Source: Methanocaldococcus indicus
Lineage (GTDB): Archaea > AGJL01 > Methanococci > Methanococcales > Methanocaldococcaceae
Direction: 5' to 3'
Length of the DNA stretch: 64,000 nucleotides
Assembly (NCBI RefSeq): GCF_049554935.1
Contig: NZ_CP186926.1
Span: forward strand, 1,120,001 to 1,184,000
Numbering within the stretch: position 1 is the stretch's first letter; each line of letters begins with the position of its first letter. Made by a program: the position numbers and the translations under genes. The notes under the pieces were generated by a model. The model did not search any database, was not told the DNA's origin, and worked only from the letters and a program-made list of their open reading frames with translations. Below, in pieces: positions 8,606 through 26,403 of this stretch.

Positions 8606-8648
8606 TTATAAATATATGCTATTATTTTAATATATTGTCTTGTATTTT
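8606..8648. repeat. Left copy of 43-bp direct repeat (att-like island boundary)
   Basis: ttataaatatatgctattattttaatatattgtcttgtatttt, identical to 20176-20218. Confidence 0.92.
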
Positions 8649-8780: not shown

Positions 8781-9480
8781 ATGCTAACCACACTTAAAGA
8801 ATTACTCGTTAATGGTTTAAATACTTTAGGTATAGCCAATTCGGATAACTTGGTAGATTACTGCTTGGTTAGAACTTTAACCGAGATAAAGACAATTAAA
8901 GCAATATCTGGAGAGATTTTAGAAATTCATCGAACAACCATAATCAAAAAACTTCAAAAGCTATCGGAAATTGAGAACTGCTTTTATACTCATCTACTAA
9001 ACCTTCCCAACATTTTAAATAATCGTAAATTTAAATTTTCAATAATAATTGATTCAACCTTATTGAGAAGATATAGTAAAAATGTATTTGTTTGGCAGTT
9101 CTATTAGATACAATTACGTAGAAAATCATAAAAAATTATATCAAGAACAAATAAACTGCTGTATTTTTAATAAAAAAAAGGATTATACGATATACACCAC
9201 AATAAAACCAAGGAATATTAAATCGACTGATGTATATTTAAGAATTATAGAATCAATATCTAAAATTATTAAGAAAACGGTCGTTGGTGATGGTTTTGTA
9301 ACAATAAAGAAAATTTTAAGGAGATGTAATGAATTGGGAATCAATTATATTGGTAGAATCAGAAAAAACATAAAAATTGAAGTTTTCGGTAAAGATGTTA
9401 AAATAGAAGATATGTTTAAAAAGGACTTCAACGAAAATAAAGCTAAATTTTGTGATTTTCTTTACATAAATTATTTATAA
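8781..9480 (+). pseudogene. Degenerate DDE transposase (IS4/IS701/ISH3-like), frameshifted and truncated
   Basis: IIIDST first Asp motif, VVGDGF second Asp motif, YIGRIRKN; split over two frames with no C-terminal Glu region. Confidence 0.7.
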
Positions 9481-9671
9481 TACCTAAAATAAAGTTATAT
9501 AACGTTACTGTATCATACTTCCTATATCTTCTATTGTATCTTTTCCAGTATCCGGGTCTTTTTTTGCATTTTTCTTCACTCATATTTTTTATTACTTCAT
9601 TATACATTTTTATGTTTTTTCGACAACCTTACACATATAGAAATTATTTTTTGTTATTTTTTGGTGAGAGT

Positions 9672-10604
9672 ATGAAAGTTGGAATTACAGCAATAGTTCC
9701 ACCTGAGATTATTTACGCAACAAATCATACACCTTTAGATTTAAACAACTTTGTTCCACAATCTAATATAACTCCAAAAAATAAACTATGTGCCTGGACT
9801 GCTACATGGAGGGACTTAATTTTAGAGGATAAAATTAAAATTGATAAATTAATTGTTGTTGCAGGTGGAGATTGCCAAAATTCCCTTGTTGATGCTGAAA
9901 AGATAGAATTAAAGAAAAAAATTCCAACACATTATTTCTTTTATCAATTTGGAGATAAAAAGCACTTTGAAAATGAAATAAAAAAACTTATTAATTTTTT
10001 AGGAGGAGATGTTGATAAAGATATTTTAAGAGAAGTTTACAAAATAAAGAAACTTGTAAAAAAAGTCGATGAATTATGCTACAAAGACAAAATAAATGGG
10101 AAAGATGCGTTTTATACTATAATCTCTGCAAGCGATTTAAAAGGAAATCCAGACGTATATAAAAAAGAAATCAATAATTTATTAAACAAAGATGAAAATG
10201 TCGAATATAGTCATAGAATTGCTATAATAGGAATTCCTCCAATTTTTATAGATTTTTATGAATATTTAAATGAAATAAATGTACATTGTGTTTATAATGA
10301 GCTACCTTATGAGTTTATAAGAATGGGAGGATATTCAATAAAGAGTATTGTAGATACATATTCAACATACACATTTGCTAACCATATAAATAAAAGGATA
10401 AAGATTATAAAGAGAGAGCTAAAAAAAAGAAAGGTCGATGGAGTAATTCATTATACCCAAATGTGTTGCCATCATAAATTGGAAGATGAAATTCTCAGAG
10501 AATTTATTGATTATCCCATGCTAACAATAGAGGGGGATATTCCTCAAAAAACACCTGAACAAACAAAGTTAAGGATAGAAGCATTTATAGAATTGTTGGG
10601 ATAG
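9672..10604 (+). CDS. 2-hydroxyacyl-CoA dehydratase (HgdA/B/D) family Fe-S protein, short form
   Basis: VPPEII.A, LCAW, GGDCQN, DGVIHYTQMCCH, L.IEGD, KLRIEAF.E motifs; GGTGAG RBS before ATG 9672. Confidence 0.8.
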   Translation: MKVGITAIVPPEIIYATNHTPLDLNNFVPQSNITPKNKLCAWTATWRDLILEDKIKIDKLIVVAGGDCQNSLVDAEKIELKKKIPTHYFFYQFGDKKHFENEIKKLINFLGGDVDKDILREVYKIKKLVKKVDELCYKDKINGKDAFYTIISASDLKGNPDVYKKEINNLLNKDENVEYSHRIAIIGIPPIFIDFYEYLNEINVHCVYNELPYEFIRMGGYSIKSIVDTYSTYTFANHINKRIKIIKRELKKRKVDGVIHYTQMCCHHKLEDEILREFIDYPMLTIEGDIPQKTPEQTKLRIEAFIELLG

Positions 10605-10606
10605 CC

Positions 10607-11287
10607 ATGATAGGTATTGATGTTGGTTCAACAAACATAAAAATCGTAGACGGGAAGAGTTTTAAAAAATATCCAATAATTAAATTAAATGAAATATTAG
10701 AAAAATATAATAATGAAGAATCTTTTGCGACTGGATATTTTAGAAAGAGATTTAAAAATTACATAACTGAAATTACTGCTGCTATATATGGAATTGATAA
10801 AGATGTTGAAGTTATAATCGATATTGGGGGACAAGATACAAAGATAATAAACACAAAAACATTAGAGTTTATAATGAATGATAAATGTGGAGCAGGGACT
10901 GGATTATTTTTACAAACTATAGCAATGTATTTAAATGTTCCTATCGAAGATTTTGGAAAATATTATTCAAAAAATCCTCTAAACTTGAATAATACTTGTG
11001 CTGTTTTTTCAATTTCAGAAATAATTAACTACCTCGTGAGTGGCTATACTATTAAAGATATTATAGCATCTGTAAATTACACTATAGCAAAGAAAATAGC
11101 TAATATTAATCCCTATGAATGTGAAACTCTTACTCTAATTGGTGGAGTTGCAGAAAATAAAGCATTTGTGAGATATTTTAAAGAAATTACTGAGAAAGAA
11201 GTTTATGTTCCTAAAAATCCGCAATTTATAAATGCAATAGGGGCGAGAAAATATGGAATTAAATACTCAACAAAAAATCATCTTTGA
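10607..11287 (+). CDS. Acyl-CoA dehydratase activase (HgdC/BadF-BcrAD ASKHA ATPase, [4Fe-4S])
   Basis: GIDVGST, ATGY, DIGGQDTK, MNDKCGAGTG, TCAVF, GGVA.N, A.GA. Confidence 0.9.
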   Translation: MIGIDVGSTNIKIVDGKSFKKYPIIKLNEILEKYNNEESFATGYFRKRFKNYITEITAAIYGIDKDVEVIIDIGGQDTKIINTKTLEFIMNDKCGAGTGLFLQTIAMYLNVPIEDFGKYYSKNPLNLNNTCAVFSISEIINYLVSGYTIKDIIASVNYTIAKKIANINPYECETLTLIGGVAENKAFVRYFKEITEKEVYVPKNPQFINAIGARKYGIKYSTKNHL

Positions 11288-11828
11288 AATTTACGATTTA
11301 TACAAAAAATTTGAATTAATTGAAAGTAATAACAAATGTAAAAAGCTATCTAAAAGAATAGAAAAAATTAAAAATGGAATTGTAGTTAAAGATATTTATG
11401 ATGTTAATTATGTTGATAGAGTTCAGGAGATTTTATTAAATTACAGAGAAATTTGGGGTTTTATTTATAAATCATCAATAAAACAGTGGATTGCAACATC
11501 TAAAACTATAAATGTAGCTGGAATTTTTTATAAGGATGATTTAATTGGAGTTATGGTTTATGGAGAGAGACCAAATTATTTGAAAATTAATTACATTGCA
11601 GTAGATAAAAAATTTAAAGATAAATCTCTTGGAGGATATTTTATTCAATTTTTAGAGAAAAAAGCTAAAAAATTAAAAAAGAAAAAAATATATGCAGAAG
11701 TTCCAAAAATAAATGAGAATGGACTAAGATTTTTTATAAAAAATAGATTTGTAATTGAAGGAATTTTAAAAAATCATACAAGAAGGGACAAAGATTTAGT
11801 TTTAATGGCTAAATATTTAGAGGGATAA
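11253..11828 (+). CDS. GNAT family acetyltransferase
   Basis: IAVDKKFKDKSLG motif A, N..GLRFF.K..F..EG motif B. Confidence 0.85.
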   Translation: MELNTQQKIIFEIYDLYKKFELIESNNKCKKLSKRIEKIKNGIVVKDIYDVNYVDRVQEILLNYREIWGFIYKSSIKQWIATSKTINVAGIFYKDDLIGVMVYGERPNYLKINYIAVDKKFKDKSLGGYFIQFLEKKAKKLKKKKIYAEVPKINENGLRFFIKNRFVIEGILKNHTRRDKDLVLMAKYLEG

Positions 11829-11829
11829 A

Positions 11830-12756
11830 ATGGTGGAATTTTTTGCATCGTTGACCATTTCTCCAGGACAAATTAGAAAAATGGTTGAACTTTTAAAGAA
11901 ACACGAACCAAAAAAATGGGCTTTTGAAAATGTGATTTTTACACCGATAGTTTCATCAGAAGGGACTATAAAAGAAATTAAAAATTTAAAAAGAAAATAT
12001 AAAACAACTATTATGTTTGATAGTGGTGGTTATTATGTTCAACAGGGAAAGTTTGAAATATATCAACTGTTTTCCTTTTTAAGGGAATTTTATGAAAACA
12101 ATAAATGGGGAGATTGGTATGTTCTACCAGATTCTCCACCAGTGTCATCTGATAGTATAAATATTGCTTGGGGAAAAGTCCATGAGACAGTTTATTTTGC
12201 AAAGAGTTTTGCAGAAGAATTTAATGGAAAAATAGAGAAAAAATTTGTTCCTGTTGTTCAGGGCATTAATGAAGAACAAATCTATTATTGTATCAAAAAT
12301 TATGCTGATTTGAATGTTAAAAGAATAGGTTTTGGAAGTTTTGGAACTTGTGGAAAGAATAATCAGATTAATCGACTAACAAAAGAAAGTTTAGAAAACT
12401 TAAAATATTTGTCTATGTTAGCAAGAGATTATGGATTTGAGTTACATGCCTTTGGTATTGGTGGAGGAAGTTCTGTAAATAAAATTAAAGACTATGTTGA
12501 TAGTTTTGATAGTAGTGGTTGGGATAAAGCTGGAGGATTTGGAGACATATTTTTTCCAGGTTCGAGAACTATTAACATAACTGGAAAATCTGGAAGAATA
12601 TCTTCAAAAAATTACATAGGTTATGAAGATATGATTGAAAATCTTAGAAATGGGCATAGGTGTTATTTTTGTAAAAATATTGCCAATCTAAAAAAATATA
12701 AGATATATCGGTCATTACATAATATAATAGTGCTTTATGAAATGGTGAAAGAATGA
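11830..12756 (+). CDS. tRNA-guanine transglycosylase (TGT)/DpdA-like base-exchange enzyme
   Basis: MFDSGGY, LPD.P, VPVVQG, LHAFG, VDSFDSSGW, C-terminal HxCxxC...HN Zn site; no PUA domain. Confidence 0.85.
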   Translation: MVEFFASLTISPGQIRKMVELLKKHEPKKWAFENVIFTPIVSSEGTIKEIKNLKRKYKTTIMFDSGGYYVQQGKFEIYQLFSFLREFYENNKWGDWYVLPDSPPVSSDSINIAWGKVHETVYFAKSFAEEFNGKIEKKFVPVVQGINEEQIYYCIKNYADLNVKRIGFGSFGTCGKNNQINRLTKESLENLKYLSMLARDYGFELHAFGIGGGSSVNKIKDYVDSFDSSGWDKAGGFGDIFFPGSRTINITGKSGRISSKNYIGYEDMIENLRNGHRCYFCKNIANLKKYKIYRSLHNIIVLYEMVKE

Positions 12757-13493
12757 GTAGGGGATATCACATTCAACATAATGCAAAACCATCAATTATT
12801 AGAGAATTTATTGAATACAGTCCAAATGCTAAAAAATCAGAACTTAAAGAAGTGTTTTTAAATATAAAACCCAGCATTATAGATGATAATTATACAATTA
12901 TGAATAAACTTATTAATAGAGAAGATAAAAATGAGATTGAAAACCTTTTGAAAATGGATGAGGTAATATTTAATAATTATCTTCATTATAAGCTCTATTC
13001 ATCATCTTTACCAATTGGATGGTCATATAGAAGTGTAATTCATATATTATTTGAAGAATATAAGGATAAAAAAATAAATTACAACGATATTGAACAAAAA
13101 GTTAAAGATAAAGCATTTAATGAAGGTTTGGGAAGTATATCATTTAGTAGCAATAGTGTTCGTGGAGCAATTAATTTTATTAAATCTTTATACCCTTCTC
13201 CAATAGATGAAAATAACATATTCAACCTCAGAGATTATTGTCAACCACATCTCTTATTATGGGGAGTGGATTATCTTTATAAAAAACAATGGGGAGAGGA
13301 ATATGGTTCATTAATGCTTTTGGATAGTGAAAAAATTGAAGAACTTTGTAAATTTTGTTTAATTGATGAAGATGTGTTGGACAATCATTTAAAGGAACTT
13401 GGATTTATGTATGATTTTGTGGAAATATCGATAAAGGCATTTGGGAAGTATATAAGATTAAAAAGAGCTTGGAGTTTTAATGATATCTTATAA
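12753..13493 (+). CDS. Hypothetical protein, possible DUF4007/SspB/BrxA-like winged-helix DNA-binding subunit
   Basis: 246 aa, overlaps the TGT stop; C-terminal F.IDED.L...L.EL....VEI pattern recalls DUF4007; family call is weak. Confidence 0.45.
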   Translation: MSRGYHIQHNAKPSIIREFIEYSPNAKKSELKEVFLNIKPSIIDDNYTIMNKLINREDKNEIENLLKMDEVIFNNYLHYKLYSSSLPIGWSYRSVIHILFEEYKDKKINYNDIEQKVKDKAFNEGLGSISFSSNSVRGAINFIKSLYPSPIDENNIFNLRDYCQPHLLLWGVDYLYKKQWGEEYGSLMLLDSEKIEELCKFCLIDEDVLDNHLKELGFMYDFVEISIKAFGKYIRLKRAWSFNDIL

Positions 13494-13505
13494 AAGGGGA
13501 AAATA

Positions 13506-14015
13506 ATGGATTATATTGTACTAATAAACTATATCAAAAATAATTATTCTTTTAATTGGCTAACAAATAGTCAGAAAAATGCGTATAATATATTAAAAGA
13601 GTATCTTATTTATGATGATGTTATTAATCTTTATGGAAAAAGAGGAGTAGGGAAAACATTTTTAGGATGGGTATTTGCAAAAAATAACAACTTTATATAT
13701 TTTGAAAATGAAGATGCATTTAGAAATTATAAAGTAAAGACAAAAATAAATGCAATTATTGATAATGGCTCATTGAAGGATGGAAGGGAGATTAGAAGGA
13801 TGGTCTCCTTAAAAACCAATAAAGTAATTTACATTTCAAGAAAGAAAATTTTAGATTATGGTATAGAGTTAAAGTTAGATTTAAATGATGTAGAACATGT
13901 TTTAAATAATCTATCTCCAATTATTGGAGAAAATATAAATACTAACATTCAAAATTTGAAAATAAATGATATCGATTTATGGAACATTTTTAAGGGGAGG
14001 GTATATGAATATTAG
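13506..14015 (+). CDS. Small P-loop NTPase-like protein (BrxB-like position)
   Basis: INLYGKRGVGKT Walker A, AIIDN degenerate Walker B; directly upstream of the large ATPase. Confidence 0.65.
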   Translation: MDYIVLINYIKNNYSFNWLTNSQKNAYNILKEYLIYDDVINLYGKRGVGKTFLGWVFAKNNNFIYFENEDAFRNYKVKTKINAIIDNGSLKDGREIRRMVSLKTNKVIYISRKKILDYGIELKLDLNDVEHVLNNLSPIIGENINTNIQNLKINDIDLWNIFKGRVYEY

Positions 14016-17000
14016 TGTATTAGAATTTATAATAAATAAAAGTCCAGTAGTAGATACACAATCAGCCGAAAATTTAATAAATGAACCAGATTCAGTTGCA
14101 GATAAGTATGAAAATCATTTAAAAACCTATATAAAAGTTGATAATGAAGAATTTGATAAGCGATTTGTGAGAGAAATTAAAAAAGGAAAAACTGTAAAAG
14201 GTTATATTTCCGCTCCTTTTGGTTATGGAAAGACAAGTAAAGCATTAAGTTTATGGGAATATTGTAAAAAGAATAACATCTTTTCCATCCCTCCATTTAA
14301 ATTTGATGGAAAGCTTGATACAATAATGGACGCAGTTTATGGATGGACTAGATATGTTTATAAATACAAATATCCTGAATATGTGGACAAAATTGAAAAA
14401 ATTTATAGAAAATATAAAACACTAAGTATAGAAAAAGAAATAGATGAACTGGCAAAAAAAGAACACTTAACGAGAGATGAAGCAAAAAGAATAATTAATA
14501 ATTTCATAGAAAAAGGTAAACTAATTATATCAATGACACCAAAGGACTTGATGAATTTTTTAAAAGAGATGAATGAGATTATAAAAAAACATTTTGATGG
14601 ATTGGCAATTTTTGTAGATGAAGTGCAAGGAATAAAAAATATGGAAACTATTAATAATTTAAGAAACTTTATTTTCGAACTTAGTATTAACAATATAGGA
14701 TTAGGTATTTTATTCATAATTCCTGATTATCAAGAAGAGGACTTAAATATAAGAGCAGGAGATTTAATTGACAGATTACGAAAAGATGGATTTTACTTAA
14801 ATTTAGTAAATATATACAATGTAGATTTTGCAGAAAAATTATGGAAAAAATATGGAGAACTTTTACAATTTAATCCTTATGATATTATAACAAAGGACTG
14901 TTTAAGAAGTATTGGAGAAATATCTTCAAGAGATGATTTAGGAAAAGGTCCAAGAACTGTCATAGGGGCATTTAAATGTGCTTGTATGAAATATAAAGAA
15001 AAATTTGAGCCATACAATGTGTTTGATTTTGTTAATGATATTTTAAATGGTAAAATCGCATACATACAACAAAAATATTTAGATGCTTTAAATGAGGGGC
15101 TATCATTGAAGAAAGTTAATTCCGAAGAAAAAAGAAATGTTATTAAATTATTAGGGGCATTCCCGAGAGGAATAAGTGAAGAAATGATAAAAAAGTATGG
15201 CTTATATGATGAGTATGAAGAACTATCAGATGCTTATTATGGAACTGAGATTGTTTATGCACTTGAGGGATATACTCTAAGAGGATTATTAGACGAAACA
15301 CCAGATGGCTATGTCGAACAGCATATAAGGAAATTTAGAAGTGTATTTGATGAATCTTGGGAGGACGAGATGATTAATGCTTTTATAAATTATATATTAC
15401 CTGAAATTTTCCCAAAGAAAAAAGGATCTCAGATTGTAGGGTGGAGATTTGATAAAAAATACCCAATAAGTAATGGATATTATCACCAACTAACTGGGAC
15501 ATTTAATCCAAAATATCCTTTTAGAATTGTTGGGATATATTCTTTGAGGAAAGAACTTAAAGAAAAAGAAATGACGCTTATTAAAAATTTGGTTAATAAT
15601 GAGTCACCAGATGTTGAATTTAAATTTATATTAGATAAAAACATAGAAAATAACGATTTGATAATTAACTATAAAAATGGAGAAGTTATCTTTAAATTTG
15701 ATGTTTTAAAGAAAGTTGGAGAAGATAAATTACCTGGAGATTTGAAAAAACTTCAACAATATGTTAAACCACAAGAAGTTACGCCAATGTTTATGTTATG
15801 TCTTTTAGATTACTTTGACAAAATAAAAGAAAAAGAAGATGAATATGCAAAGTATGGGGGTGAAATTAATGCATTAAGGTCTATTCTTGTAAGATATTTA
15901 AAAAGATTTTTGTTTTCTGATGAGTTGGCAGAAAAATACGAGTTAAGGAAAAGACAAGAAAAAATAGTCGAAGAAATATTTAATAGAATTTGTGAATATA
16001 AATTTAAAGATTATAGAACATTAATTCATTCTCCAAACTGGCATAGAGATTTAGAGAGATATAGAATTTTATTGGAATCACTTTCAATTTCAAAAAGAAG
16101 GGGTGAAGAATTTGAAACTACTAAAAAAGAACTAGTTTCTAAATTGACTGGAAGTAAGAATCCAAGTGTTGCAGGATTCGATGATGAATGTAAAAATGGA
16201 AAATGGAAGGACTTGATATATTTGGAATATTGGGGTAAAGGAGAAAAAATTAAGGTTAAATTAAAAAAGCATCAACTTGAAGAAAGGATATTAAAAGAAT
16301 TCATTGAAAAATGGACACAACCAATAAGTATTGATGTAATAATTAATTATGGAATTAATTTGGGATACATTCCAGAAGAAGTCGAAGAAATTTTAAAAAT
16401 CCTTGAAAGTAGGAAATACATTGAAATTGATAAAGGATATATATTCAAACTTGAGGAGATAACAAACACTGATGTTTTAAATAAATTTGATGAAATTGAA
16501 AAACTTGCGAAGAAAGTTGCCAATCTTTATAAAAAATATGGAAAAGATATCCCAAACATCCCCATAAAATTATCTAAAAAAGATGAAATTAAGAACCAAA
16601 ATGATTCTGATTTATTATACAAAGAATTAGAACTTTTGGAAAGTTGGGAAAAAACATTAAAAGGATATCATAAGATGATTAAAAATGAAATAGATAAAAA
16701 TAAGGAAGAACTACTAAATGAAATCATAAAAACAAGGGAAAAAACAGAAGGACTAAAAAAGAAAATAGATGACATAAAAGAGGATATTATAAAGACCCAT
16801 TATTCATTAGGGGGAATTGTTAAGCATTTAGAAGAACAAATAAAGATAACAAAAAAGAAATGTAATAAGATATCGAGAGATTTATTGGAATTGAGAGAAA
16901 AAATAAACTCTTCAAGAGATATTGAAACTCTTGCCGAGATTTTAAATATTGCAAATAAAGAAATGGAACGTTTAAGAAAAGAACATACTGACATTAATGA

Positions 17001-17841
17001 AAAATATAATAAATTTAAATCTTGGTTAGCAATTCTTAGAAAATTAGAAGAATTACATGAAAAAATAGATTCCTATAAGGATTATATTGATATTGATGAA
17101 GAATATGAAAGATTTAACGAACTAATAGACGAAATAATAACTAACTTTGCAAGAGATGGGTGGGATTATCTAAACATGGATAAGGACGTTGAAAAAGATA
17201 TAGAATTAATAGAAAAAGACATAAAGAAAAAAGAAAGTAATTTAAGAAACGAATTTAATAAGATTCAAGATGAAATAAAAACAAAAATGGTTATCTTATC
17301 TCAAACACTAAAATCGTTAGATGTTTCTCCGTATTCATACAGAGAAGCATTTAGTATTGAAGATAGAGAGACAGCATACCAAAATCTTGTAAGAAATGTG
17401 AGGTTGTATCTCCAAGAAATTTTAAACAAGTTACATGACTATATTATATCATTAAAAACTGAAGTAGAGGTTAAATTGGGTAATAATGAAAATTATATAA
17501 CTATACTAAAGGAAATAGAAGATAAATTGGACAATATAAATATAGAAATTATAGAAAAAAATAATTTAATAACTGCTGTTGAAGAAATAAAATCAAATAT
17601 ACTTGATATATGGGAAGAAATAGAGAAGACTAGAAAAGAAATAAAAAGAGAAATTATTGAAAAAAATAAATCTGGTAAGTCAGAAGAAGAAATAAAAATA
17701 ATAGAATTATTAAACAAATATGGTGAAATTTCCATTAAAGAACTTACAAAACATTTAAACATGCCTATCGAGGGGACGTTAAAATGTCTATTGAATATGG
17801 AGAATATAGAAATAATTGTAAGGAAAAGATGGAAAAAATAA
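14005..17841 (+). CDS. Large P-loop ATPase with long C-terminal coiled coil (BrxC/SspC/PglY-like)
   Basis: APFGYGKTS Walker A, AIFVDEVQ Walker B, GPRT sensor-like motif, ~450 aa E/K-rich heptads, terminal wHTH-like segment; GGGGAGG RBS before ATG 14005. Confidence 0.75.
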   Translation: MNISVLEFIINKSPVVDTQSAENLINEPDSVADKYENHLKTYIKVDNEEFDKRFVREIKKGKTVKGYISAPFGYGKTSKALSLWEYCKKNNIFSIPPFKFDGKLDTIMDAVYGWTRYVYKYKYPEYVDKIEKIYRKYKTLSIEKEIDELAKKEHLTRDEAKRIINNFIEKGKLIISMTPKDLMNFLKEMNEIIKKHFDGLAIFVDEVQGIKNMETINNLRNFIFELSINNIGLGILFIIPDYQEEDLNIRAGDLIDRLRKDGFYLNLVNIYNVDFAEKLWKKYGELLQFNPYDIITKDCLRSIGEISSRDDLGKGPRTVIGAFKCACMKYKEKFEPYNVFDFVNDILNGKIAYIQQKYLDALNEGLSLKKVNSEEKRNVIKLLGAFPRGISEEMIKKYGLYDEYEELSDAYYGTEIVYALEGYTLRGLLDETPDGYVEQHIRKFRSVFDESWEDEMINAFINYILPEIFPKKKGSQIVGWRFDKKYPISNGYYHQLTGTFNPKYPFRIVGIYSLRKELKEKEMTLIKNLVNNESPDVEFKFILDKNIENNDLIINYKNGEVIFKFDVLKKVGEDKLPGDLKKLQQYVKPQEVTPMFMLCLLDYFDKIKEKEDEYAKYGGEINALRSILVRYLKRFLFSDELAEKYELRKRQEKIVEEIFNRICEYKFKDYRTLIHSPNWHRDLERYRILLESLSISKRRGEEFETTKKELVSKLTGSKNPSVAGFDDECKNGKWKDLIYLEYWGKGEKIKVKLKKHQLEERILKEFIEKWTQPISIDVIINYGINLGYIPEEVEEILKILESRKYIEIDKGYIFKLEEITNTDVLNKFDEIEKLAKKVANLYKKYGKDIPNIPIKLSKKDEIKNQNDSDLLYKELELLESWEKTLKGYHKMIKNEIDKNKEELLNEIIKTREKTEGLKKKIDDIKEDIIKTHYSLGGIVKHLEEQIKITKKKCNKISRDLLELREKINSSRDIETLAEILNIANKEMERLRKEHTDINEKYNKFKSWLAILRKLEELHEKIDSYKDYIDIDEEYERFNELIDEIITNFARDGWDYLNMDKDVEKDIELIEKDIKKKESNLRNEFNKIQDEIKTKMVILSQTLKSLDVSPYSYREAFSIEDRETAYQNLVRNVRLYLQEILNKLHDYIISLKTEVEVKLGNNENYITILKEIEDKLDNINIEIIEKNNLITAVEEIKSNILDIWEEIEKTRKEIKREIIEKNKSGKSEEEIKIIELLNKYGEISIKELTKHLNMPIEGTLKCLLNMENIEIIVRKRWKK

Positions 17842-18734
17842 AGACTCCATGTTACTTAAAAATAAAACATAAACTTTCACTTCTATTTTCTGATTTTGAA
17901 GACATCTCCTATAATGATTTCTGGTTAATGGTAGACAACCCAAATAAAAAACTTCCTCAGAAAAAATTTGTTATAACCGATAAATTTGATTATAGATTAC
18001 CTATTTATGAAATAAATCATAATCCTTTTACACCAGAATTAAACAAAATTATTAGTGAAAAATATCATCTAATTGAAAAATATGTTAAGACACAAAGAGA
18101 TATTAAAGATTATATCGTTGATTATGTTAATACCAAAACTCCAAAAACTGTTATTTTGTATCTTATTGATGGACTATCGTATTGGGACTATATAAATGCA
18201 AGCATAAAATATAATGTTGAACCAATATTTGTCAATGGAAAAACAACAACCGAAAATGGGCTTAAAAATATTGTTTATGGAAAAAATGGCATACCTATTG
18301 CAAAAGAACTTTATAAGTTTGGATATAAAGGCTACGGACAAACTTATTGGAATAGAAAAAATAAATTAACAGATATTTTGTTTAGATACATAAGTGAAAA
18401 GAACATTTTTTATTATGATGAAAACATACACGACATAATAGTTAAAAATAAACAATCAAAGAAATATATTCAAATTTATAAAATTGGATTAGATGATGAT
18501 GCACATAAGTTAAGAGAAGTTAGTAAAAAAAGTATAATTAATAAAATAAAAGAAATATTTGAAAATATAAACATCTTAAGAGATATTCTAAATCAAACTA
18601 ATCAGCCTTATCTTATAGTAATTACTGCTGACCATGGTATAAAGTGGGATTTTACAAAAAAATATAGAAAAGGTTCTCATGGAAACATTTCATTTGAGGA
18701 GTGTTTTGTGCCTTTAATTATAATTGAGGGGTAG
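17829..18734 (+). CDS. PglZ-like alkaline phosphatase superfamily protein
   Basis: LYLIDGLSY, LDDDAH, IVITADHG, SHGNISFEECFVP metal-binding motifs typical of the PglZ domain. Confidence 0.82.
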   Translation: MEKIKTPCYLKIKHKLSLLFSDFEDISYNDFWLMVDNPNKKLPQKKFVITDKFDYRLPIYEINHNPFTPELNKIISEKYHLIEKYVKTQRDIKDYIVDYVNTKTPKTVILYLIDGLSYWDYINASIKYNVEPIFVNGKTTTENGLKNIVYGKNGIPIAKELYKFGYKGYGQTYWNRKNKLTDILFRYISEKNIFYYDENIHDIIVKNKQSKKYIQIYKIGLDDDAHKLREVSKKSIINKIKEIFENINILRDILNQTNQPYLIVITADHGIKWDFTKKYRKGSHGNISFEECFVPLIIIEG

Positions 18735-18736
18735 CT

Positions 18737-19897
18737 ATGTTATTTATTGGAAGAGAAAAACTAAAAGACAGATTAGGAGATGATGTGTATATAGATGCTT
18801 CAAAATCTCATGCAATTTTTATTTGTGGTAAAAGAGGTAGTGGAAAAAGTTATACTTTAGGTGTTTTAGTTGAAGAACTTCAAGAAAAATACTCCGAGTA
18901 TCTAAAAATTATTATCGACCCAATGGGGATATTTTGGACTATGGTAGAGCCAAATGAAGAACAGGAAGAAGAACTTTGGGATTGGGATTTATATCCAGAA
19001 AGATATCCTGTTAAGTTAATAGTCCCTGGGGAAATAGAGGAAAGATTTGACGAAGATGTTATAAAAGAAATGGAAAATAGGGGAGTAGAATTTAAAAAAC
19101 TTCTTTTGAATCCTTCTGATATCTCAGCAGAAGGATGGTGTGATTTATTCAATTTAAATATAAACGAAATTATGGGAATTGCTTTGTATAGGGCAATTGA
19201 TAATATTGAAAAAGATTTTTTCACAATAGATGATATTATTTATGAGGTTGAGATGGATACAAAATCAAAAGAATCTACAAAAGAAGCATTAATAAATCGT
19301 CTAAACATGGCAAAAAAGTGGGGAATTTTTTCAGATGAATACATTCCAATAGAAAATATTTTTGAAAAAAATTCAATAAATGTTATTGATTTAAGTGTTA
19401 TTGAAAGTGGAAGATATGGGTTAAGAGATTTGATTGTATCAATAATTGCAAAATACTTATTTAATCAACGATTGAAAGCAAGAAAAAAAGAAATGTTAAA
19501 TTTACAATCAAAAATGCCAAAAGTTTGGCTGTTTATTGACGAAGCACATAATTTTATTCCTTCTGGGAAATCAACATTATCAAAAGAAATTCTAATAAGA
19601 TGGGCAAAGGAAGGACGACAGCCTGGGTTAAATTTAGTTATAGCTACTCAACAACCATCAGCAATTGACAATGAAGTTTTAAGTCAATGTGATATAATCT
19701 TTGCTCATAAAGTGACTAATAGAGAAGATATAAATGCATTAAATAAGCTCAATCAAGAGTATATGGGAAAGGAACTAAAAGTATATATTAAAGATTTAAA
19801 TAAAGGAGAATGTGTTTTTATTGATGATGAAAAAGAATTCTTAAAAATTATAAAAATAAGAACAAGAAAAAGTAAACATGGAGGAGGAGAAAAGTAA
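18737..19897 (+). CDS. HerA/FtsK-like ATPase (DUF87), no N-terminal HAS barrel
   Basis: ICGKRGSGKSYT, IIDPMG, LFIDEAHNF, KEGRQPG, ATQQPS. Confidence 0.9.
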   Translation: MLFIGREKLKDRLGDDVYIDASKSHAIFICGKRGSGKSYTLGVLVEELQEKYSEYLKIIIDPMGIFWTMVEPNEEQEEELWDWDLYPERYPVKLIVPGEIEERFDEDVIKEMENRGVEFKKLLLNPSDISAEGWCDLFNLNINEIMGIALYRAIDNIEKDFFTIDDIIYEVEMDTKSKESTKEALINRLNMAKKWGIFSDEYIPIENIFEKNSINVIDLSVIESGRYGLRDLIVSIIAKYLFNQRLKARKKEMLNLQSKMPKVWLFIDEAHNFIPSGKSTLSKEILIRWAKEGRQPGLNLVIATQQPSAIDNEVLSQCDIIFAHKVTNREDINALNKLNQEYMGKELKVYIKDLNKGECVFIDDEKEFLKIIKIRTRKSKHGGGEK

Positions 19898-20175: not shown

Positions 20176-20218
20176 TTATAAATATATGCTATTATTTTAA
20201 TATATTGTCTTGTATTTT
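20176..20218. repeat. Right copy of 43-bp direct repeat, overlapping the pilin-like gene stop codon
   Basis: Identical to 8606-8648; encodes KIQDNILK-stop of the 20192-20413 gene. Confidence 0.92.
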
Positions 20219-20413
20219 CTTTGTAATGTTCATTGTTTTATTATTTAGTGCAGATACTACATTATTAACTGATTCATCAACTTGTTTCCAAGTATCTCTA
20301 ACTTCCTTTATATAGAAGTATGCTGCAATTGTAGAAACTACTACTGCTGCTAAAATTAATATTGCTAACTCCATAGAAATCTGTCCTCTTTCAGAATATA
20401 CTTTATTTATCAC
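20192..20413 (-). CDS. Class III signal peptide (type IV pilin-like) small protein
   Basis: RG/QISMELAILILAAVVV: prepilin cleavage site with Q+1 and E+5 followed by a hydrophobic helix. Confidence 0.85.
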   Translation of the reverse strand: MINKVYSERGQISMELAILILAAVVVSTIAAYFYIKEVRDTWKQVDESVNNVVSALNNKTMNITKKIQDNILK

Positions 20414-20504
20414 GTAAATCCTAACCTCTTAGAATTTTGTTACTAAATACTTAACCAACTAAATTATATTGTATACTATATTAATTATTATCCTTTGTGA
20501 GAGT

Positions 20505-21152
20505 ATGGAGATTGGATTAAGTGTATTAGCAGAGAACAAAGTTGGAGTTTTACATAAATTAACTGGAGTAATTGCAAAATTAGGAGGTAATATTTTATAT
20601 ACTCAACAGTTTATAACCTCTGAAAATTATGGATTTATATATATGGAAGTTGAGGATATAGATATAGAGCAATTAAAAAAAGAACTTGATAAATGCAACT
20701 ACATTAAGGAGTATGAGATTCACAATACACTAAAAAAGATATTTGGGAAGAGAATAATTATTATTGGTGGAGGGGCACAAGTTGCAGAAGTGGCTAAGGG
20801 AGCTATAAGTGAAGCAGATAGACATAACATAAGAGGAGAAAGAATAAGTGTAGATACACTACCAATAGTTGGAGAGGAGAATATTGCTGAAGCAGTTGAA
20901 GCTGTTTTAAAACTTCCAAGAGTTGGAATTTTAGTTTTAGCTGGCTCATTAATGGGAGGAAAAATAACAGAAGCTGTTAGAAAAGTAAAAAGTAAGGGAA
21001 TTCCAATAATTAGCTTAAAAATGTTTGGTTCTGTCCCAAAAGAAGCTGATTTAGTTGTTGGAGACCCAATTCAGGCAGGCGTTTTGGCAGCTATGGCAAT
21101 AGCTAAAACAGCTAAATTTGATATAAATAAAGTTAGAGGGAAAGTTTTATAA
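20505..21152 (+). CDS. ACT domain + DUF5612-like protein
   Basis: N-terminal ACT (ENKVGVL..LT..IA..GGNI), GGGAQVA..A.GA..EADRHN.RGERISVDT. Confidence 0.85.
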   Translation: MEIGLSVLAENKVGVLHKLTGVIAKLGGNILYTQQFITSENYGFIYMEVEDIDIEQLKKELDKCNYIKEYEIHNTLKKIFGKRIIIIGGGAQVAEVAKGAISEADRHNIRGERISVDTLPIVGEENIAEAVEAVLKLPRVGILVLAGSLMGGKITEAVRKVKSKGIPIISLKMFGSVPKEADLVVGDPIQAGVLAAMAIAKTAKFDINKVRGKVL

Positions 21153-25542: not shown

Positions 25543-26403
25543 TTATTTTTTCAGCCCCGGGAAACCGCGGGGAACGAGCACTCCGGCGCGAGGAGTTCCC
25601 TTTGCTCCCCCGGGGCACATCTCCAATATACTCCTTGATAATCCTGTTTTTATAACATTTAAAAAGTAGTTGTTAAACCAGTAGTTTTTAAACTTTTTAA
25701 GAATATACTCACTATAATTATAATCTACATCTACTTTTGCCTCAATTAATATTAATCCTTCTGGAACTGCTGGAGGAGGACTTTCTTTATAGTTGTTAGA
25801 TAAGAGATTATCTATCCAACTTATAGGTTTTTCTTTTAAAGAAACTAAATTTAATGCTGAAACTATTTTCCTAACCATTTGCCATAAAAAGCTTTCTCCA
25901 ATAATATCAATAGTAATAAAAAATTCATTCTCTTTAATATCTATTTTGTATATTGTCCTTATAGGTGATTTTTCTTTACTTTTATCTTTCTTACAAAAGT
26001 TGTGAAAAGATTTAGTCCCTACTAATTTTTTAGCTCCTACTTTCATTAATTCAATATCTTGTCCAATTTTTGGTAAGATATATCTATAATGTCTATATTC
26101 AACTTTTGGTATTTCTTCTATTTCTTTATATCCCAATATCCAAATTCCAAAATTATTTAGTTTATAGTTGATATACTTTATAGTGTTTTCATTTATTTCT
26201 ATTTCATTATTAATATCTAAAACTACAAAATTACCCAGAGCAGATACTCCTTTATCAGTCCTACCTCCTGAATATACAATTTTTTTAGTTTTTAGTAGGT
26301 TAAGGTCTTCAAAAGTATCTAATATCTTATCACAAACTGTCTCCTTATGTGGTTGTTGTTGAAATGAATACCTCCCATCATAAGCAACTTTAAAGATATA
26401 CAT
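25543..26403 (-). CDS. truA: tRNA pseudouridine(38-40) synthase
   Basis: KVAYDG, GRTDKGVSA catalytic motif, FHNF, SFLWQMVR. Confidence 0.93.
   Translation of the reverse strand: MYIFKVAYDGRYSFQQQPHKETVCDKILDTFEDLNLLKTKKIVYSGGRTDKGVSALGNFVVLDINNEIEINENTIKYINYKLNNFGIWILGYKEIEEIPKVEYRHYRYILPKIGQDIELMKVGAKKLVGTKSFHNFCKKDKSKEKSPIRTIYKIDIKENEFFITIDIIGESFLWQMVRKIVSALNLVSLKEKPISWIDNLLSNNYKESPPPAVPEGLILIEAKVDVDYNYSEYILKKFKNYWFNNYFLNVIKTGLSRSILEMCPGGAKGTPRAGVLVPRGFPGLKK
25554..25622 (+). ncRNA. Single-hairpin box H/ACA guide sRNA (Pf9-like, predicted 16S rRNA target)
   Basis: GC-rich patch: lower stem GCCCCGGG/CCCGGGGC, pocket AAACCG(C) / UGCUCC, upper stem GGGAAC/GUUCCC, GA-containing K-turn-like apex, ACA 3 nt from the 3' end. 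Confidence 0.8.

Follow-up and report, generated by a model that had tools for sequence, protein, structure and literature searches.

In a window of 64,000 nucleotides from the archaeon Methanocaldococcus indicus (contig NZ_CP186926.1, positions 1,120,001 to 1,184,000 of the forward strand; the positions given below are those of the window unless stated otherwise), we found a genomic island of nine genes, labelled g1-g9 (the nine + strand open reading frames, ORFs, in 5' to 3' order; Table 1), which is an archaeal variant of the published BREX-Related Capture (BRC) system with all seven of its components, the assignment of the BrxC-like ATPase being a probable one. The island additionally carries a two-gene module encoding an HGD-D-type iron-sulfur (Fe-S) protein (g1) and its partner activase (g2). 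We consider it reasonably probable that this BRC variant works with a preQ1-type base supplied by g1/g2, which the GNAT and TGT-like proteins (g3 and g4) would use for self-marking, while the BREX-like proteins (g5-g9) would be responsible for sensing and restriction. A more far-reaching version, which we put forward only tentatively, is that g1/g2 constitute a second, unrelated class of preQ0 nitrile reductase, composed of an oxygen-sensitive HGD-D Fe-S protein and an activase, which would feed both an archaeal queuosine pathway and the island, where GNAT and TGT would install an undescribed N-acyl-preQ1 self-mark in DNA.

The BRC system was predicted in silico, and its published description reports no experiment (PMC12839542; Nucleic Acids Research, January 2026; preprint, October 2025). 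According to this text, the system consists of PglZ, a DUF6079/BrxC-like ATPase, an active STAND NTPase (a BrxB homologue), a BrxA-like DUF4007 protein, a HerA/FtsK ATPase, a GNAT and a TGT, the last two being present in a subset of loci and sometimes fused; DpdB and DpdC are absent, the distribution is sparse yet phylogenetically wide, archaea included, and dPreQ0 is proposed as the self-DNA mark (PMC12839542). The main text contains no mention of a dehydratase, BadF, an activase or any name beginning with Methanococc-, although its supplementary tables may list neighbouring genes, nor does it mention QueF, QueC, QueE, preQ1 or Haloplanus (PMC12839542). No further paper using the BRC term was found in our literature search. 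An earlier note on this DNA had presented the island as an undescribed system, with a BREX-like ATPase and PglZ core and a TGT base-exchange module; since the same seven-component architecture has been published as BRC, that interpretation is partly supported, i.e., right in kind but overtaken by publication. The earlier note had also listed the dehydratase and the activase without giving them a role; both are indeed present, but it was this unexplained pair that proved to be the most informative and the newest part of the island, and it is the part that the main text of the BRC paper leaves unmentioned.

To place the island among its relatives, we used an alignment scan for the TGT-like gene across one genome per GTDB species, which returned 112 relatives, compared with the 45 taxa of the BRC paper; the best 80 of the 112 loci were kept, and 77 of these are bacterial. 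All six genes from TGT to g9 are present in 46/80 loci, spread over archaea and many bacterial phyla, and tblastn combined with ORF clustering placed them on one strand and in the same order, except that g6 follows g7 in Poribacteria. Lineages with this cassette include Methanocaldococcus, Methanothermococcus, Methanosarcina, Chloroflexota, Poribacteria, Latescibacterota, Gemmatimonadota, Armatimonadota, Desulfotomaculum-type Firmicutes and Ignavibacterium, among others. Over the 80 loci plus the window, clustering recovered TGT 81, g5 75, g7 66, g6 54, g8 48 and g9 48 times. Hence, the linkage of TGT with the ATPase and PglZ genes in other genomes, on which the proposal of the earlier note depended, is conserved, as these 46 loci keep the whole series from TGT to HerA. 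The remaining loci comprise 7 of a short form (without g8 and g9 although at least 2.5 kb follow g7), one odd locus and 26 unclassified ones, most of which run off the contig or locus; the unclassified set includes L022, in which g8 and g9 are present and g6 was not clustered, and five loci with duplicated g5-g7. The short form consists of GNAT, TGT, g5 and g7, without g6, g8 (PglZ) and g9 (HerA), and was seen in L017, L025, L028, L031, L044, L045, L051-L053, L056, L057, L075 and L078 as well as in L120, an Oscillatoria plasmid (NC_019763.1); some short-form loci contain a second g5-g7 pair and two divergent genes (F10 and F11) without a Pfam match. HerA is stated to be universal in BRC (PMC12839542), whereas these short forms are HerA-less.

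The evidence that bears most directly on g1/g2 comes from the archaeal islands, in which the pair and QueF replace each other: among 10 archaeal BRC islands, 6 have g1/g2 and 4 have QueF, while none has both and none has neither. The pair was found in the window, in G014 (locus L001), G006 (L088) and G009 (L089), in Methanothermococcus G036 (L002) and in Methanosarcina G040 (L003), where it lies after HerA and not before GNAT. When 401 genomes of Methanosarcina's phylum were searched with the TGT-like profile, four carriers were obtained (G040, G370, G430 and G482). The last three lack g1 and combine the full cassette and GNAT with a QueF (PF14489) inside the island; in G430 and G482 this gene precedes TGT, in the same orientation, by 78 bp, and G482 has a second QueF copy nearby; in G370 it comes directly after GNAT. 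On plasmid NZ_CP098519.1 of Haloplanus sp. HW8-1, genes annotated as 6-pyruvoyl-tetrahydropterin synthase (queD-type), QueE and queC abut the BRC island, which continues after queC with TGT, g5, g6, g7, g8, g9, GNAT and a "hypothetical protein"; the latter is a QueF, 66-69% identical to the other island QueFs (expectation values, E, of 1e-49 to 1e-51). By tblastn, no QueF was found within 10 kb on either side of the 80 TGT-anchored loci, nor in the window when the island QueFs served as queries, and PF14489 had no match in the whole M. indicus genome. These observations strengthen the 7-deazaguanine link drawn in the earlier note, and bases of the preQ1 type become the leading candidates in view of the exchange between QueF and the HGD-D pair and of the queC, queE and queD-type genes that adjoin one of the islands. 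Our data therefore indicate a preQ1-derived base, unlike the dPreQ0 of the BRC paper.

It could be argued that g1/g2 are mere passengers, i.e., a metabolic or redox pair which travels with a genuine BRC island and does not feed the TGT step. Stand-alone pairs do occur in genomes of the Methanosarcinia class, where BRC genes are absent from the surrounding 9 kb or so; the pair is missing from all 77 bacterial BRC loci, and the main text of the BRC paper is silent on it. However, the stand-alone copies sit with QueA, a bacterial-type TGT or FolE2, and the archaeal islands that lack the pair carry QueF in 4/4 cases. Moreover, the pair is kept in three archaeal lineages, at a different position in Methanosarcina, and among 40 Methanococci genomes g7 occurs in 5 and g1 (E <= 1e-40) in exactly those 5, so that the pair accompanies g7 in 5/5 genomes and is found in 0/35 genomes without g7. 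Given this, we regard a passenger role as very unlikely.

The stand-alone pairs also point to a function for g1/g2 beyond BRC. In a 151-genome sample of the Methanosarcinia class, g1 is present in 7 genomes and QueA in 6; all six QueA genomes have g1, and the seventh g1 genome is the BRC carrier G040. The 401-genome phylum sample gave the same relation (g1 in 8, QueA in 7). The union of both samples contains 10 QueA-positive genomes (G115, G125, G153, G175, G181, G207, G211, G221, G231 and G241; loci L097-L102), with g1 in 10/10 and QueF in 0/10; of the five tested further, all have QueH and none reaches the QueG cut-off. The g1 gene lies within 2 kb of QueA in 5/10 (divergent and 64-69 bp apart in three, at 478 bp in one and at 1.9 kb in one), FolE2 is immediately upstream of g1 in two loci, and in L097 a bacterial-type TGT (E 5e-103 to 2ash) is found beside QueA. 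Thus, the QueA-positive archaea seem to possess a bacterial-type queuosine pathway in which one step, preQ0 to preQ1, is unaccounted for; such an archaeal pathway, with a bacterial-type TGT, QueA and QueH but no QueF, is apparently unreported. Since g1/g2 take the place of QueF in the islands and co-occur with QueA in genomes without QueF, the simplest reading is that they perform the preQ0-to-preQ1 step, and we infer that they may act as a non-orthologous preQ0-to-preQ1 reductase.

The pair might instead act on a 7-deazaguanine by some other reaction, for instance by reducing preQ0 after its insertion into DNA or tRNA, or by making another derivative, in which case the base would not be derived from preQ1. 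We find this unlikely: the sole queuosine step missing from the 10 QueA-positive archaea is that of QueF, QueA requires the aminomethyl group of preQ1, and a GNAT requires an amine to acylate, which preQ0 does not offer at C7. Still, the genomic evidence ties g1/g2 to the pathway while leaving the step unfixed, dPreQ0 is the base proposed in the BRC paper (PMC12839542), and for phage QueF it is undecided whether reduction takes place on the free base or on DNA (PMC6884629). As for the reductase reading itself, no proposal of a preQ0 reductase of the g1/g2 type was found in the literature, and according to the abstract of a November 2026 review (PMC13740343), QueF forms a unique class among nitrile-reducing enzymes.

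g1 matches PF06050 well above the cut-off (E 3.9e-28, 99 bits versus 28), and C40, C68, C266, H267 and H268 are invariant in an 18-sequence alignment; its match to the double-cubane model is weak and restricted to the C-terminal part (E 1e-10, 41 bits versus a cut-off of 350), and the scores against the HadC and double-cubane equivalog models are far under the cut-offs. g2 exceeds the TIGR00241 cut-off (136 versus 125 bits); the ASKHA phosphate loop at its N-terminus is intact, and two motifs with Cys residues are visible. The two genes adjoin in every case seen, in islands as well as in stand-alone pairs, and in both settings there is one HGD-D gene only, a second D-type subunit gene not being seen. 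Among the 254 homologues of g1 at E <= 1e-10, many are about 50% identical, and their sources are, by name, ANME-2, Methanoperedens, Methanosarcinales and Thermoplasmata. In these traits g1/g2 resemble HgdAB-HgdC-type dehydratases, benzoyl-CoA reductases and double-cubane proteins, with which they share the two-gene layout of enzyme and activase, the above-threshold family matches and, in g1, three invariant cysteines; they differ in having a single 310-aa D-type subunit in place of an alpha/beta pair and in being surrounded by nucleobase metabolism (Que, TGT and BRC genes) and not by acyl-CoA metabolism. Compared with QueF, an NADPH-dependent T-fold enzyme, g1/g2 would share the proposed reaction and the genomic slot, but their fold and cofactors are unrelated, the enzyme being an HGD-D protein with Fe-S chemistry, presumably sensitive to oxygen, whose activase depends on ATP.

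We also considered whether g1/g2 could be a copy of a housekeeping pair, and rejected this, as the nearest paralogue of g1 in its own genome is the sole one and is only 34% identical over 190 aa. A distant paralogue pair of g1/g2 lies outside the window, at 160663-163400 of the genome, tail-to-tail beside QueC: the QueC gene (160663-161319, + strand) is followed by an HGD-D-like gene (about 161472-162640, - strand) and then by an activase-like gene.

Regarding precursor supply, the M. indicus genome encodes QueC and arcTGT, while QueF and QueA were not found in it. Since QueC and arcTGT are present and QueF is absent, preQ0 should be available in this host, and preQ1 should not, unless it is made by the island. 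Among Poribacteria and Latescibacterota carriers of the system, QueC and QueF are both present in 14/14.

The protein pair expected to use the base is formed by g3 and g4. g3 matches PF00583 (E 5e-7) and, more strongly, a hidden Markov model (HMM) built from BRC-linked GNATs (E 4e-9). With this HMM, a GNAT was detected in 62/80 loci plus the window; its gene precedes TGT, follows HerA or g7, or, in 23 loci, is joined to TGT so that the GNAT forms the N-terminus of the fusion protein. g4 has 318 homologues, most of which match PF01702 and some PF23859. Its D64, D101, Q144-G145, D227 and H276-x-C278-x2-C281...H297 are invariant among 16 sequences; the aspartates are of the TGT type, and the H-x-C-x2-C...H arrangement is a Zn-site pattern. 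Searching the PDB with the single g4 sequence gave nothing useful, while the best match of the family profile is 7ui4, a DNA-guanine transglycosylase (E 1.7e-3).

DNA is the presumed target of the pair; among solved structures the TGT clade is closest to DpdA, if only weakly. Phage DNA contains dPreQ1 and its N-formyl and N-methyl derivatives (fdPreQ1 and mdPreQ1), which are made with QueF-type and DpdM/DpdN enzymes (PMC6884629; PMC10516641). If a GNAT acylated the amine, the product would be an obvious counterpart of these N-methyl and N-formyl bases; PMC10516641 mentions neither acetyl groups nor GNAT. A tailed virus, Thermocrinis Great Boiling Spring virus (BK013347.1; L119:3953-5130), carries a BRC-type acetyltransferase and TGT pair between hypothetical genes and the genes for a sliding clamp, helicase, nuclease and DNA polymerase; its genome also encodes a capsid, a portal and a terminase, and g5-g9 were not found in it. 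Its pair fits a role in viral DNA modification, possibly as mimicry of the host mark. Two other IMG/VR contigs contain the TGT-like gene, namely L115, which also has a g7 homologue, and L117, which ends inside the TGT-like gene.

An alternative is that the substrate of GNAT and TGT is RNA or protein, such as a component of the system that becomes deazaguanylated, and that this modification, not a DNA self-mark, regulates the BREX-like machine. Enzymes of the TGT/QueC families in type IV CBASS conjugate a deazaguanine to a protein N-terminus (PMC13279940), and we found no target recognition domain (TRD)-like, motif-recognizing domain in g4. Nevertheless, we judge this alternative quite unlikely, because the closest solved relative by profile acts on DNA guanine, because the tailed virus has the pair among its replication genes without any BRC partner protein to modify, and because BREX-type systems mark DNA as self (PMC12839542).

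Several points weigh against the combined reading of g1/g2 as a preQ0 reductase and of GNAT/TGT as a DNA-marking pair. The usual substrates of HGD-D enzymes are CoA thioesters or aromatic rings, and a typical dehydratase is built from two distinct D-type subunits, whereas g1 is single; no precedent for a four-electron nitrile reduction by the HGD-D family was found in the literature. The co-occurrence counts come from related genomes of uncertain completeness and do not represent independent events. Taken alone, g4 stays under the Pfam cut-offs (E 2e-3 for the TGT and DpdA models, 2.4e-3 for PF23859), and its family profile matches DpdA and arcTGT weakly (E 1.7e-3 and 3.3e-3). The island QueFs have an apparent NADPH-type motif. 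QueF and the amidinotransferase QueF-L are, however, hard to separate by sequence (PMC6884629), so that the island QueFs could make the archaeosine base and not preQ1. TGT-like and QueC-like enzymes are able to modify proteins, the case in point being type IV CBASS (PMC13279940). Finally, the four Chloroflexota carriers examined lack both QueC and QueF (4/4). These same carriers keep a canonical Tgt and QueA, and must therefore import a queuosine precursor; hence, the idea that QueC-less Chloroflexota carriers exclude a deazaguanine substrate was rejected in favour of precursor salvage.

The five remaining proteins correspond to the BREX-like part of BRC. The AlphaFold2 (AF2) model of g5 is of high quality (pLDDT 96) and was aligned by VIA-align to SspB (6juf) with Z 15.6 over 237 of 246 residues and a root-mean-square deviation of 3.3, and to BrxA (7zge) with Z 10.7, the next match having Z 8.4; by sequence, none of 38 family members matches DUF4007 in Pfam, nor BrxA or SspB in PADLOC. 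The modelled fold thus suggests that g5 is the DUF4007/BrxA-like DNA-binding protein of BRC. An alignment of 28 sequences shows no variation in the Walker A motif GxxGxGKT of g6 (G44, G47, G49-K50-T51) or in D86, its acidic Walker B residue, and in the PDB the g6 profile matches nothing but generic AAA+ Walker A regions; NTPases of this type are called BrxB homologues in the BRC paper (PMC12839542), and the conserved motifs suggest that g6 is the active small STAND/BrxB-like NTPase of the system.

g7 has its Walker A and B motifs in the N-terminal region, with G86 and G88-K89-T90 nearly invariant and D218-E219 invariant; the C-terminal half is an extended coiled coil that ends in a winged helix. 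The window copy alone has no family match, and the matches at family level are weak: PF10923 (BrxC_BrxD) is found in 13/36 members (best E 1e-5), and PADLOC assigns BrxD to 5/36 and BrxC to 1/36. The Haloplanus homologue is named by PGAP as a BREX system ATP-binding domain-containing protein. From the PDB the family profile retrieved only coiled-coil matches, and residues 1-820 retrieved generic P-loop clusters from the ESM Atlas, a cluster with 35% BrxC_BrxD appearing only at rank 18 (score 0.90). The relation of g7 to BrxC and that of g6 to BrxB are accordingly best described as probable homologies, based on weak family-level matches and the published analysis.

Similar reasoning applies to g8, for which the window copy alone gave no match at E <= 0.01 in Pfam or PADLOC and a single-sequence PDB search gave nothing useful, whereas PADLOC PglZ models are matched by 32/48 family members, with no non-PglZ model matched, and Pfam PglZ by 13/48. 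Its AF2 model (pLDDT 88.6) has PorX as the top Foldseek match (2e-7) and the BREX PglZ 9zn5_B further down (8e-6); with VIA-align, many superfamily members are tied at Z 15-16, and the alignment is full-length for PorX only (Z about 16). PorX itself carries a PglZ domain. The g8 family profile matched PorX weakly in the PDB (E 0.009) and PglZ at E 0.44, and D129, T156, D237, H241, D283, H284 and H299 are invariant in the family. Together, model and family matches suggest that g8 is the PglZ-family protein of BRC. A predicted complex of g8 with g6 reached a median score of 0.31 against a mark of 0.32, which weighs neither for nor against binding. g9 is assigned by PF01935 (E 1.4e-13) and PADLOC HerA (1.5e-28), and it also matches PADLOC mad8 over its full length (2.8e-24). 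It was the only one of the nine proteins with a match to any PADLOC model, in line with the expectation of the earlier note that no complete system would be recognized; the BREX-like ATPase and PglZ core proposed there is supported by the g7 and g8 families.

Protein family or fold, the conservation of catalytic residues, gene linkage and the replacement pattern of QueF and the HGD-D-type protein were established directly, and from these we infer the reaction of g1/g2, the identity of the base, the DNA target and the defence outcome. We propose that the host would already make preQ0 for archaeosine. g2 could then serve as an ATP-driven electron injector for g1, a single-subunit [4Fe-4S] protein, which would convert preQ0 to preQ1 by reducing its nitrile to an aminomethyl group, a task that QueF performs in bacteria and that would fall to g1/g2 in this QueF-less archaeon. 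g3 and g4 would swap guanine for a preQ1-derived base, probably N-acylated on its aminomethyl group, at particular sites in the cell's own DNA. g5, as a DNA-binding protein, g6, as an active P-loop NTPase, and g7 would assemble on DNA and read its mark status, and the translocase g9 together with g8, a minimal PglZ phosphodiesterase or nuclease, would act on unmarked incoming DNA.

Such a machine resembles several known systems without coinciding with any of them. With canonical BREX types 1-6 the island has in common an ATPase that is probably related to BrxC/D, an enzyme of the PglZ family, a protein with the BrxA fold and a small NTPase in the BrxB position, and presumably the same logic of marking self and excluding non-self; it differs in its PglZ of only 316 aa, in the intact P-loop of g6, in the addition of HerA, GNAT and TGT, and in having no match to a PglX methyltransferase or, as in type 4 BrxP, to a phosphoadenosine phosphosulfate (PAPS) reductase. 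Neither of these two enzymes, nor DpdB (a ParB-like ATPase) or DpdC, was matched by any of the nine proteins in Pfam, NCBIfam or PADLOC, which agrees with what the earlier note had concluded from the sequence and, for DpdB and DpdC, with the absence reported for BRC. The Dpd system (DpdA-K) and phage DpdA clusters are alike in coupling a TGT-superfamily enzyme to 7-deazaguanine supply genes, whereas the island lacks DpdB, DpdC and the Dpd helicase and nuclease genes, its TGT belongs to a distinct clade with weak DpdA-model matches, and its partner is a GNAT and not, as in the phage clusters, the formyltransferase DpdN or the methyltransferase DpdM. SspABCD-SspE and DndFGH resemble the island through the SspB fold of g5 and, according to the BRC paper (PMC12839542), through a DndH-type HerA; unlike them, the island has no sulfur-transfer genes (cysteine desulfurase, PAPS-reductase-like SspD or DndC). 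MADS has its counterpart in g9 by way of the mad8 match, but the other eight proteins have no PADLOC match at all and there is no methyltransferase.

Table 1. Features of the BRC-type island and its bounds (window positions).
Feature	Positions	Strand	Basis or remark
Left direct repeat copy, exact 43 nt	8606-8648	+	island bound
Two short ORFs, candidate DDE transposase remnants	8781-9480	+	left island end
g1, HGD-D-family Fe-S protein, 310 aa	9672-10604	+	PF06050
g2, ATP-dependent activase, BcrAD/BadFG (HgdC) type, g1 partner	10607-11287	+	TIGR00241
g3, GNAT acyltransferase of BRC-specific clade	11253-11828	+	PF00583
g4, DpdA-like TGT superfamily member, 308 aa, putative guanine-exchange enzyme	11830-12756	+	family profile
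g5, SspB/BrxA-fold (DUF4007-like) protein, C-terminal winged helix	12753-13493	+	AF2 model and VIA-align
g6, small P-loop NTPase, 169 aa, intact Walker A/B	13506-14015	+	conserved motifs
g7, BrxC/BrxD-like ATPase, 1291 aa	13966-17841	+	family matches
g8, minimal PglZ-type alkaline-phosphatase-superfamily enzyme, 316 aa	17784-18734	+	AF2 model and family matches
g9, HerA/FtsK-type ATPase (DUF87)	18737-19897	+	PF01935, PADLOC
Right direct repeat copy, exact 43 nt	20176-20218	+	overlaps 3' end of pilin-like gene 20192-20413 (- strand)

The layout of the island confirms the description given in the earlier note of nine overlapping or nearly abutting same-strand genes within direct repeats. The genes span 9672-19897, and neighbours are separated by anything from a 58-nt overlap to a 12-nt gap (g1/g2 +2 nt, g2/g3 -35, g3/g4 +1, g4/g5 -4, g5/g6 +12, g6/g7 -50, g7/g8 -58 and g8/g9 +2); judging from the translations, the two large overlaps, g6/g7 and g7/g8, shrink to about -11 and -13 if internal ATGs are used. 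The longest ORF version of g1 opens at TTG 9534, with ATG 9672 as the alternative start. A GGTGA-type ribosome-binding site and a T-rich 190-bp spacer are found upstream of ATG 9672, which is likely the true start, since this site lies just upstream of it and residues 1-53 of the TTG ORF fall outside the Pfam match, which starts at residue 54. The stretch around this start (9661-9696) is 72% alike over 36 nt to 20494-20529, at the start of the ACT-DUF5612 gene outside the island, which is probably due to a common translation-start context or to chance.

The nine genes are best explained as one horizontally acquired operon. The 43-nt repeat that bounds the 11.6-kb segment occurs in exactly 2 copies in the 1.44-Mb genome, and no match of this type was obtained in 100 shuffles of the window (0/100). 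Of the two short ORFs at the left end, ORF 9082-9480 weakly matches PF01609 (DDE_Tnp_1; E 1.5e-4, under the curated cut-off), and ORF 8781-9107 has no family match. Housekeeping genes flank the island on both sides, with a LeuA-type synthase and a VWA protein on the left, and a class III signal-peptide protein, an ACT-DUF5612 protein, a CBS protein and HcyBio on the right. The GC content is about 27% throughout the window, and the nearest named homologues of the island proteins are from Methanocaldococcus. The flanking genes of the window were not found in the examined flanks of the islands L001, L002, L088 and L089, nor in those of L003, and no direct repeat of at least 20 nt was present in the examined flanks around L001, L088 and L089. 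No empty site could be read in five congeneric genomes without the island, as synteny is lost there and the two flanks are separated by tens to hundreds of kb. Elsewhere, BRC copies reside on plasmids, i.e., the Haloplanus plasmid and, in the short form, the conjugative Oscillatoria plasmid.

The cluster might also be no defence system at all, but a DNA-repair or maintenance module of a mobile element, or an inactive relic, since transposase remnants lie inside the island and the literature we found holds no experimental demonstration of defence for any BRC system. We consider this highly improbable: the nine ORFs are all intact, the window copies retain the catalytic residues that are invariant in their families, the distribution is patchy and plasmid-borne, and BREX, Ssp/Dnd and MADS contain homologues of g7, g8, g5 and g9.

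Some further observations concern the surroundings of BRC loci. Directly upstream of TGT and on the same strand, 37/80 loci, all bacterial, encode a protein of 750-1000 aa (family F8 in 20, F9 in 17; for example L013:768-3020 and L009:423-3023) with matches to sigma-70 region 2/4, the RNA-polymerase alpha C-terminal domain/HhH and HARE-HTH. The archaeal islands have no equivalent of it, and the main text of PMC12839542 does not list a protein of this type as a component, the word "Sigma" appearing there only in connection with BrxL. In Methanothermococcus sp. Ax23, an insertion of about 4.4 kb (L002:11661-16041) separates g5 from g6, the island being collinear in other respects. The Haloplanus plasmid has, after QueF, a large gene of the PD-(D/E)XK nuclease family (L118:22399-24924), which may encode an accessory effector. 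In the window itself, 25554-25619 (+ strand) matches the Rfam family Pab160, a guide RNA of the archaeal H/ACA type, with 61 bits versus a gathering score of 47.4.

The novelty of this locus thus lies in its two-gene module, which may represent a new class of nitrile reductase and reveal an archaeal queuosine pathway that has gone unnoticed. For BRC it yields the prediction of a preQ1-type base; cultivable strains with the island include Methanocaldococcus sp. FS406-22, Methanosarcina barkeri 3 and Haloplanus sp. HW8-1. The virus with a GNAT and TGT pair hints, in turn, at counter-defence through mimicry of the mark. If our reading of g1/g2 is true, a second, Fe-S- and ATP-dependent route of nitrile reduction would matter for enzymology and biocatalysis, and it would fill the missing step of the archaeal queuosine pathway.

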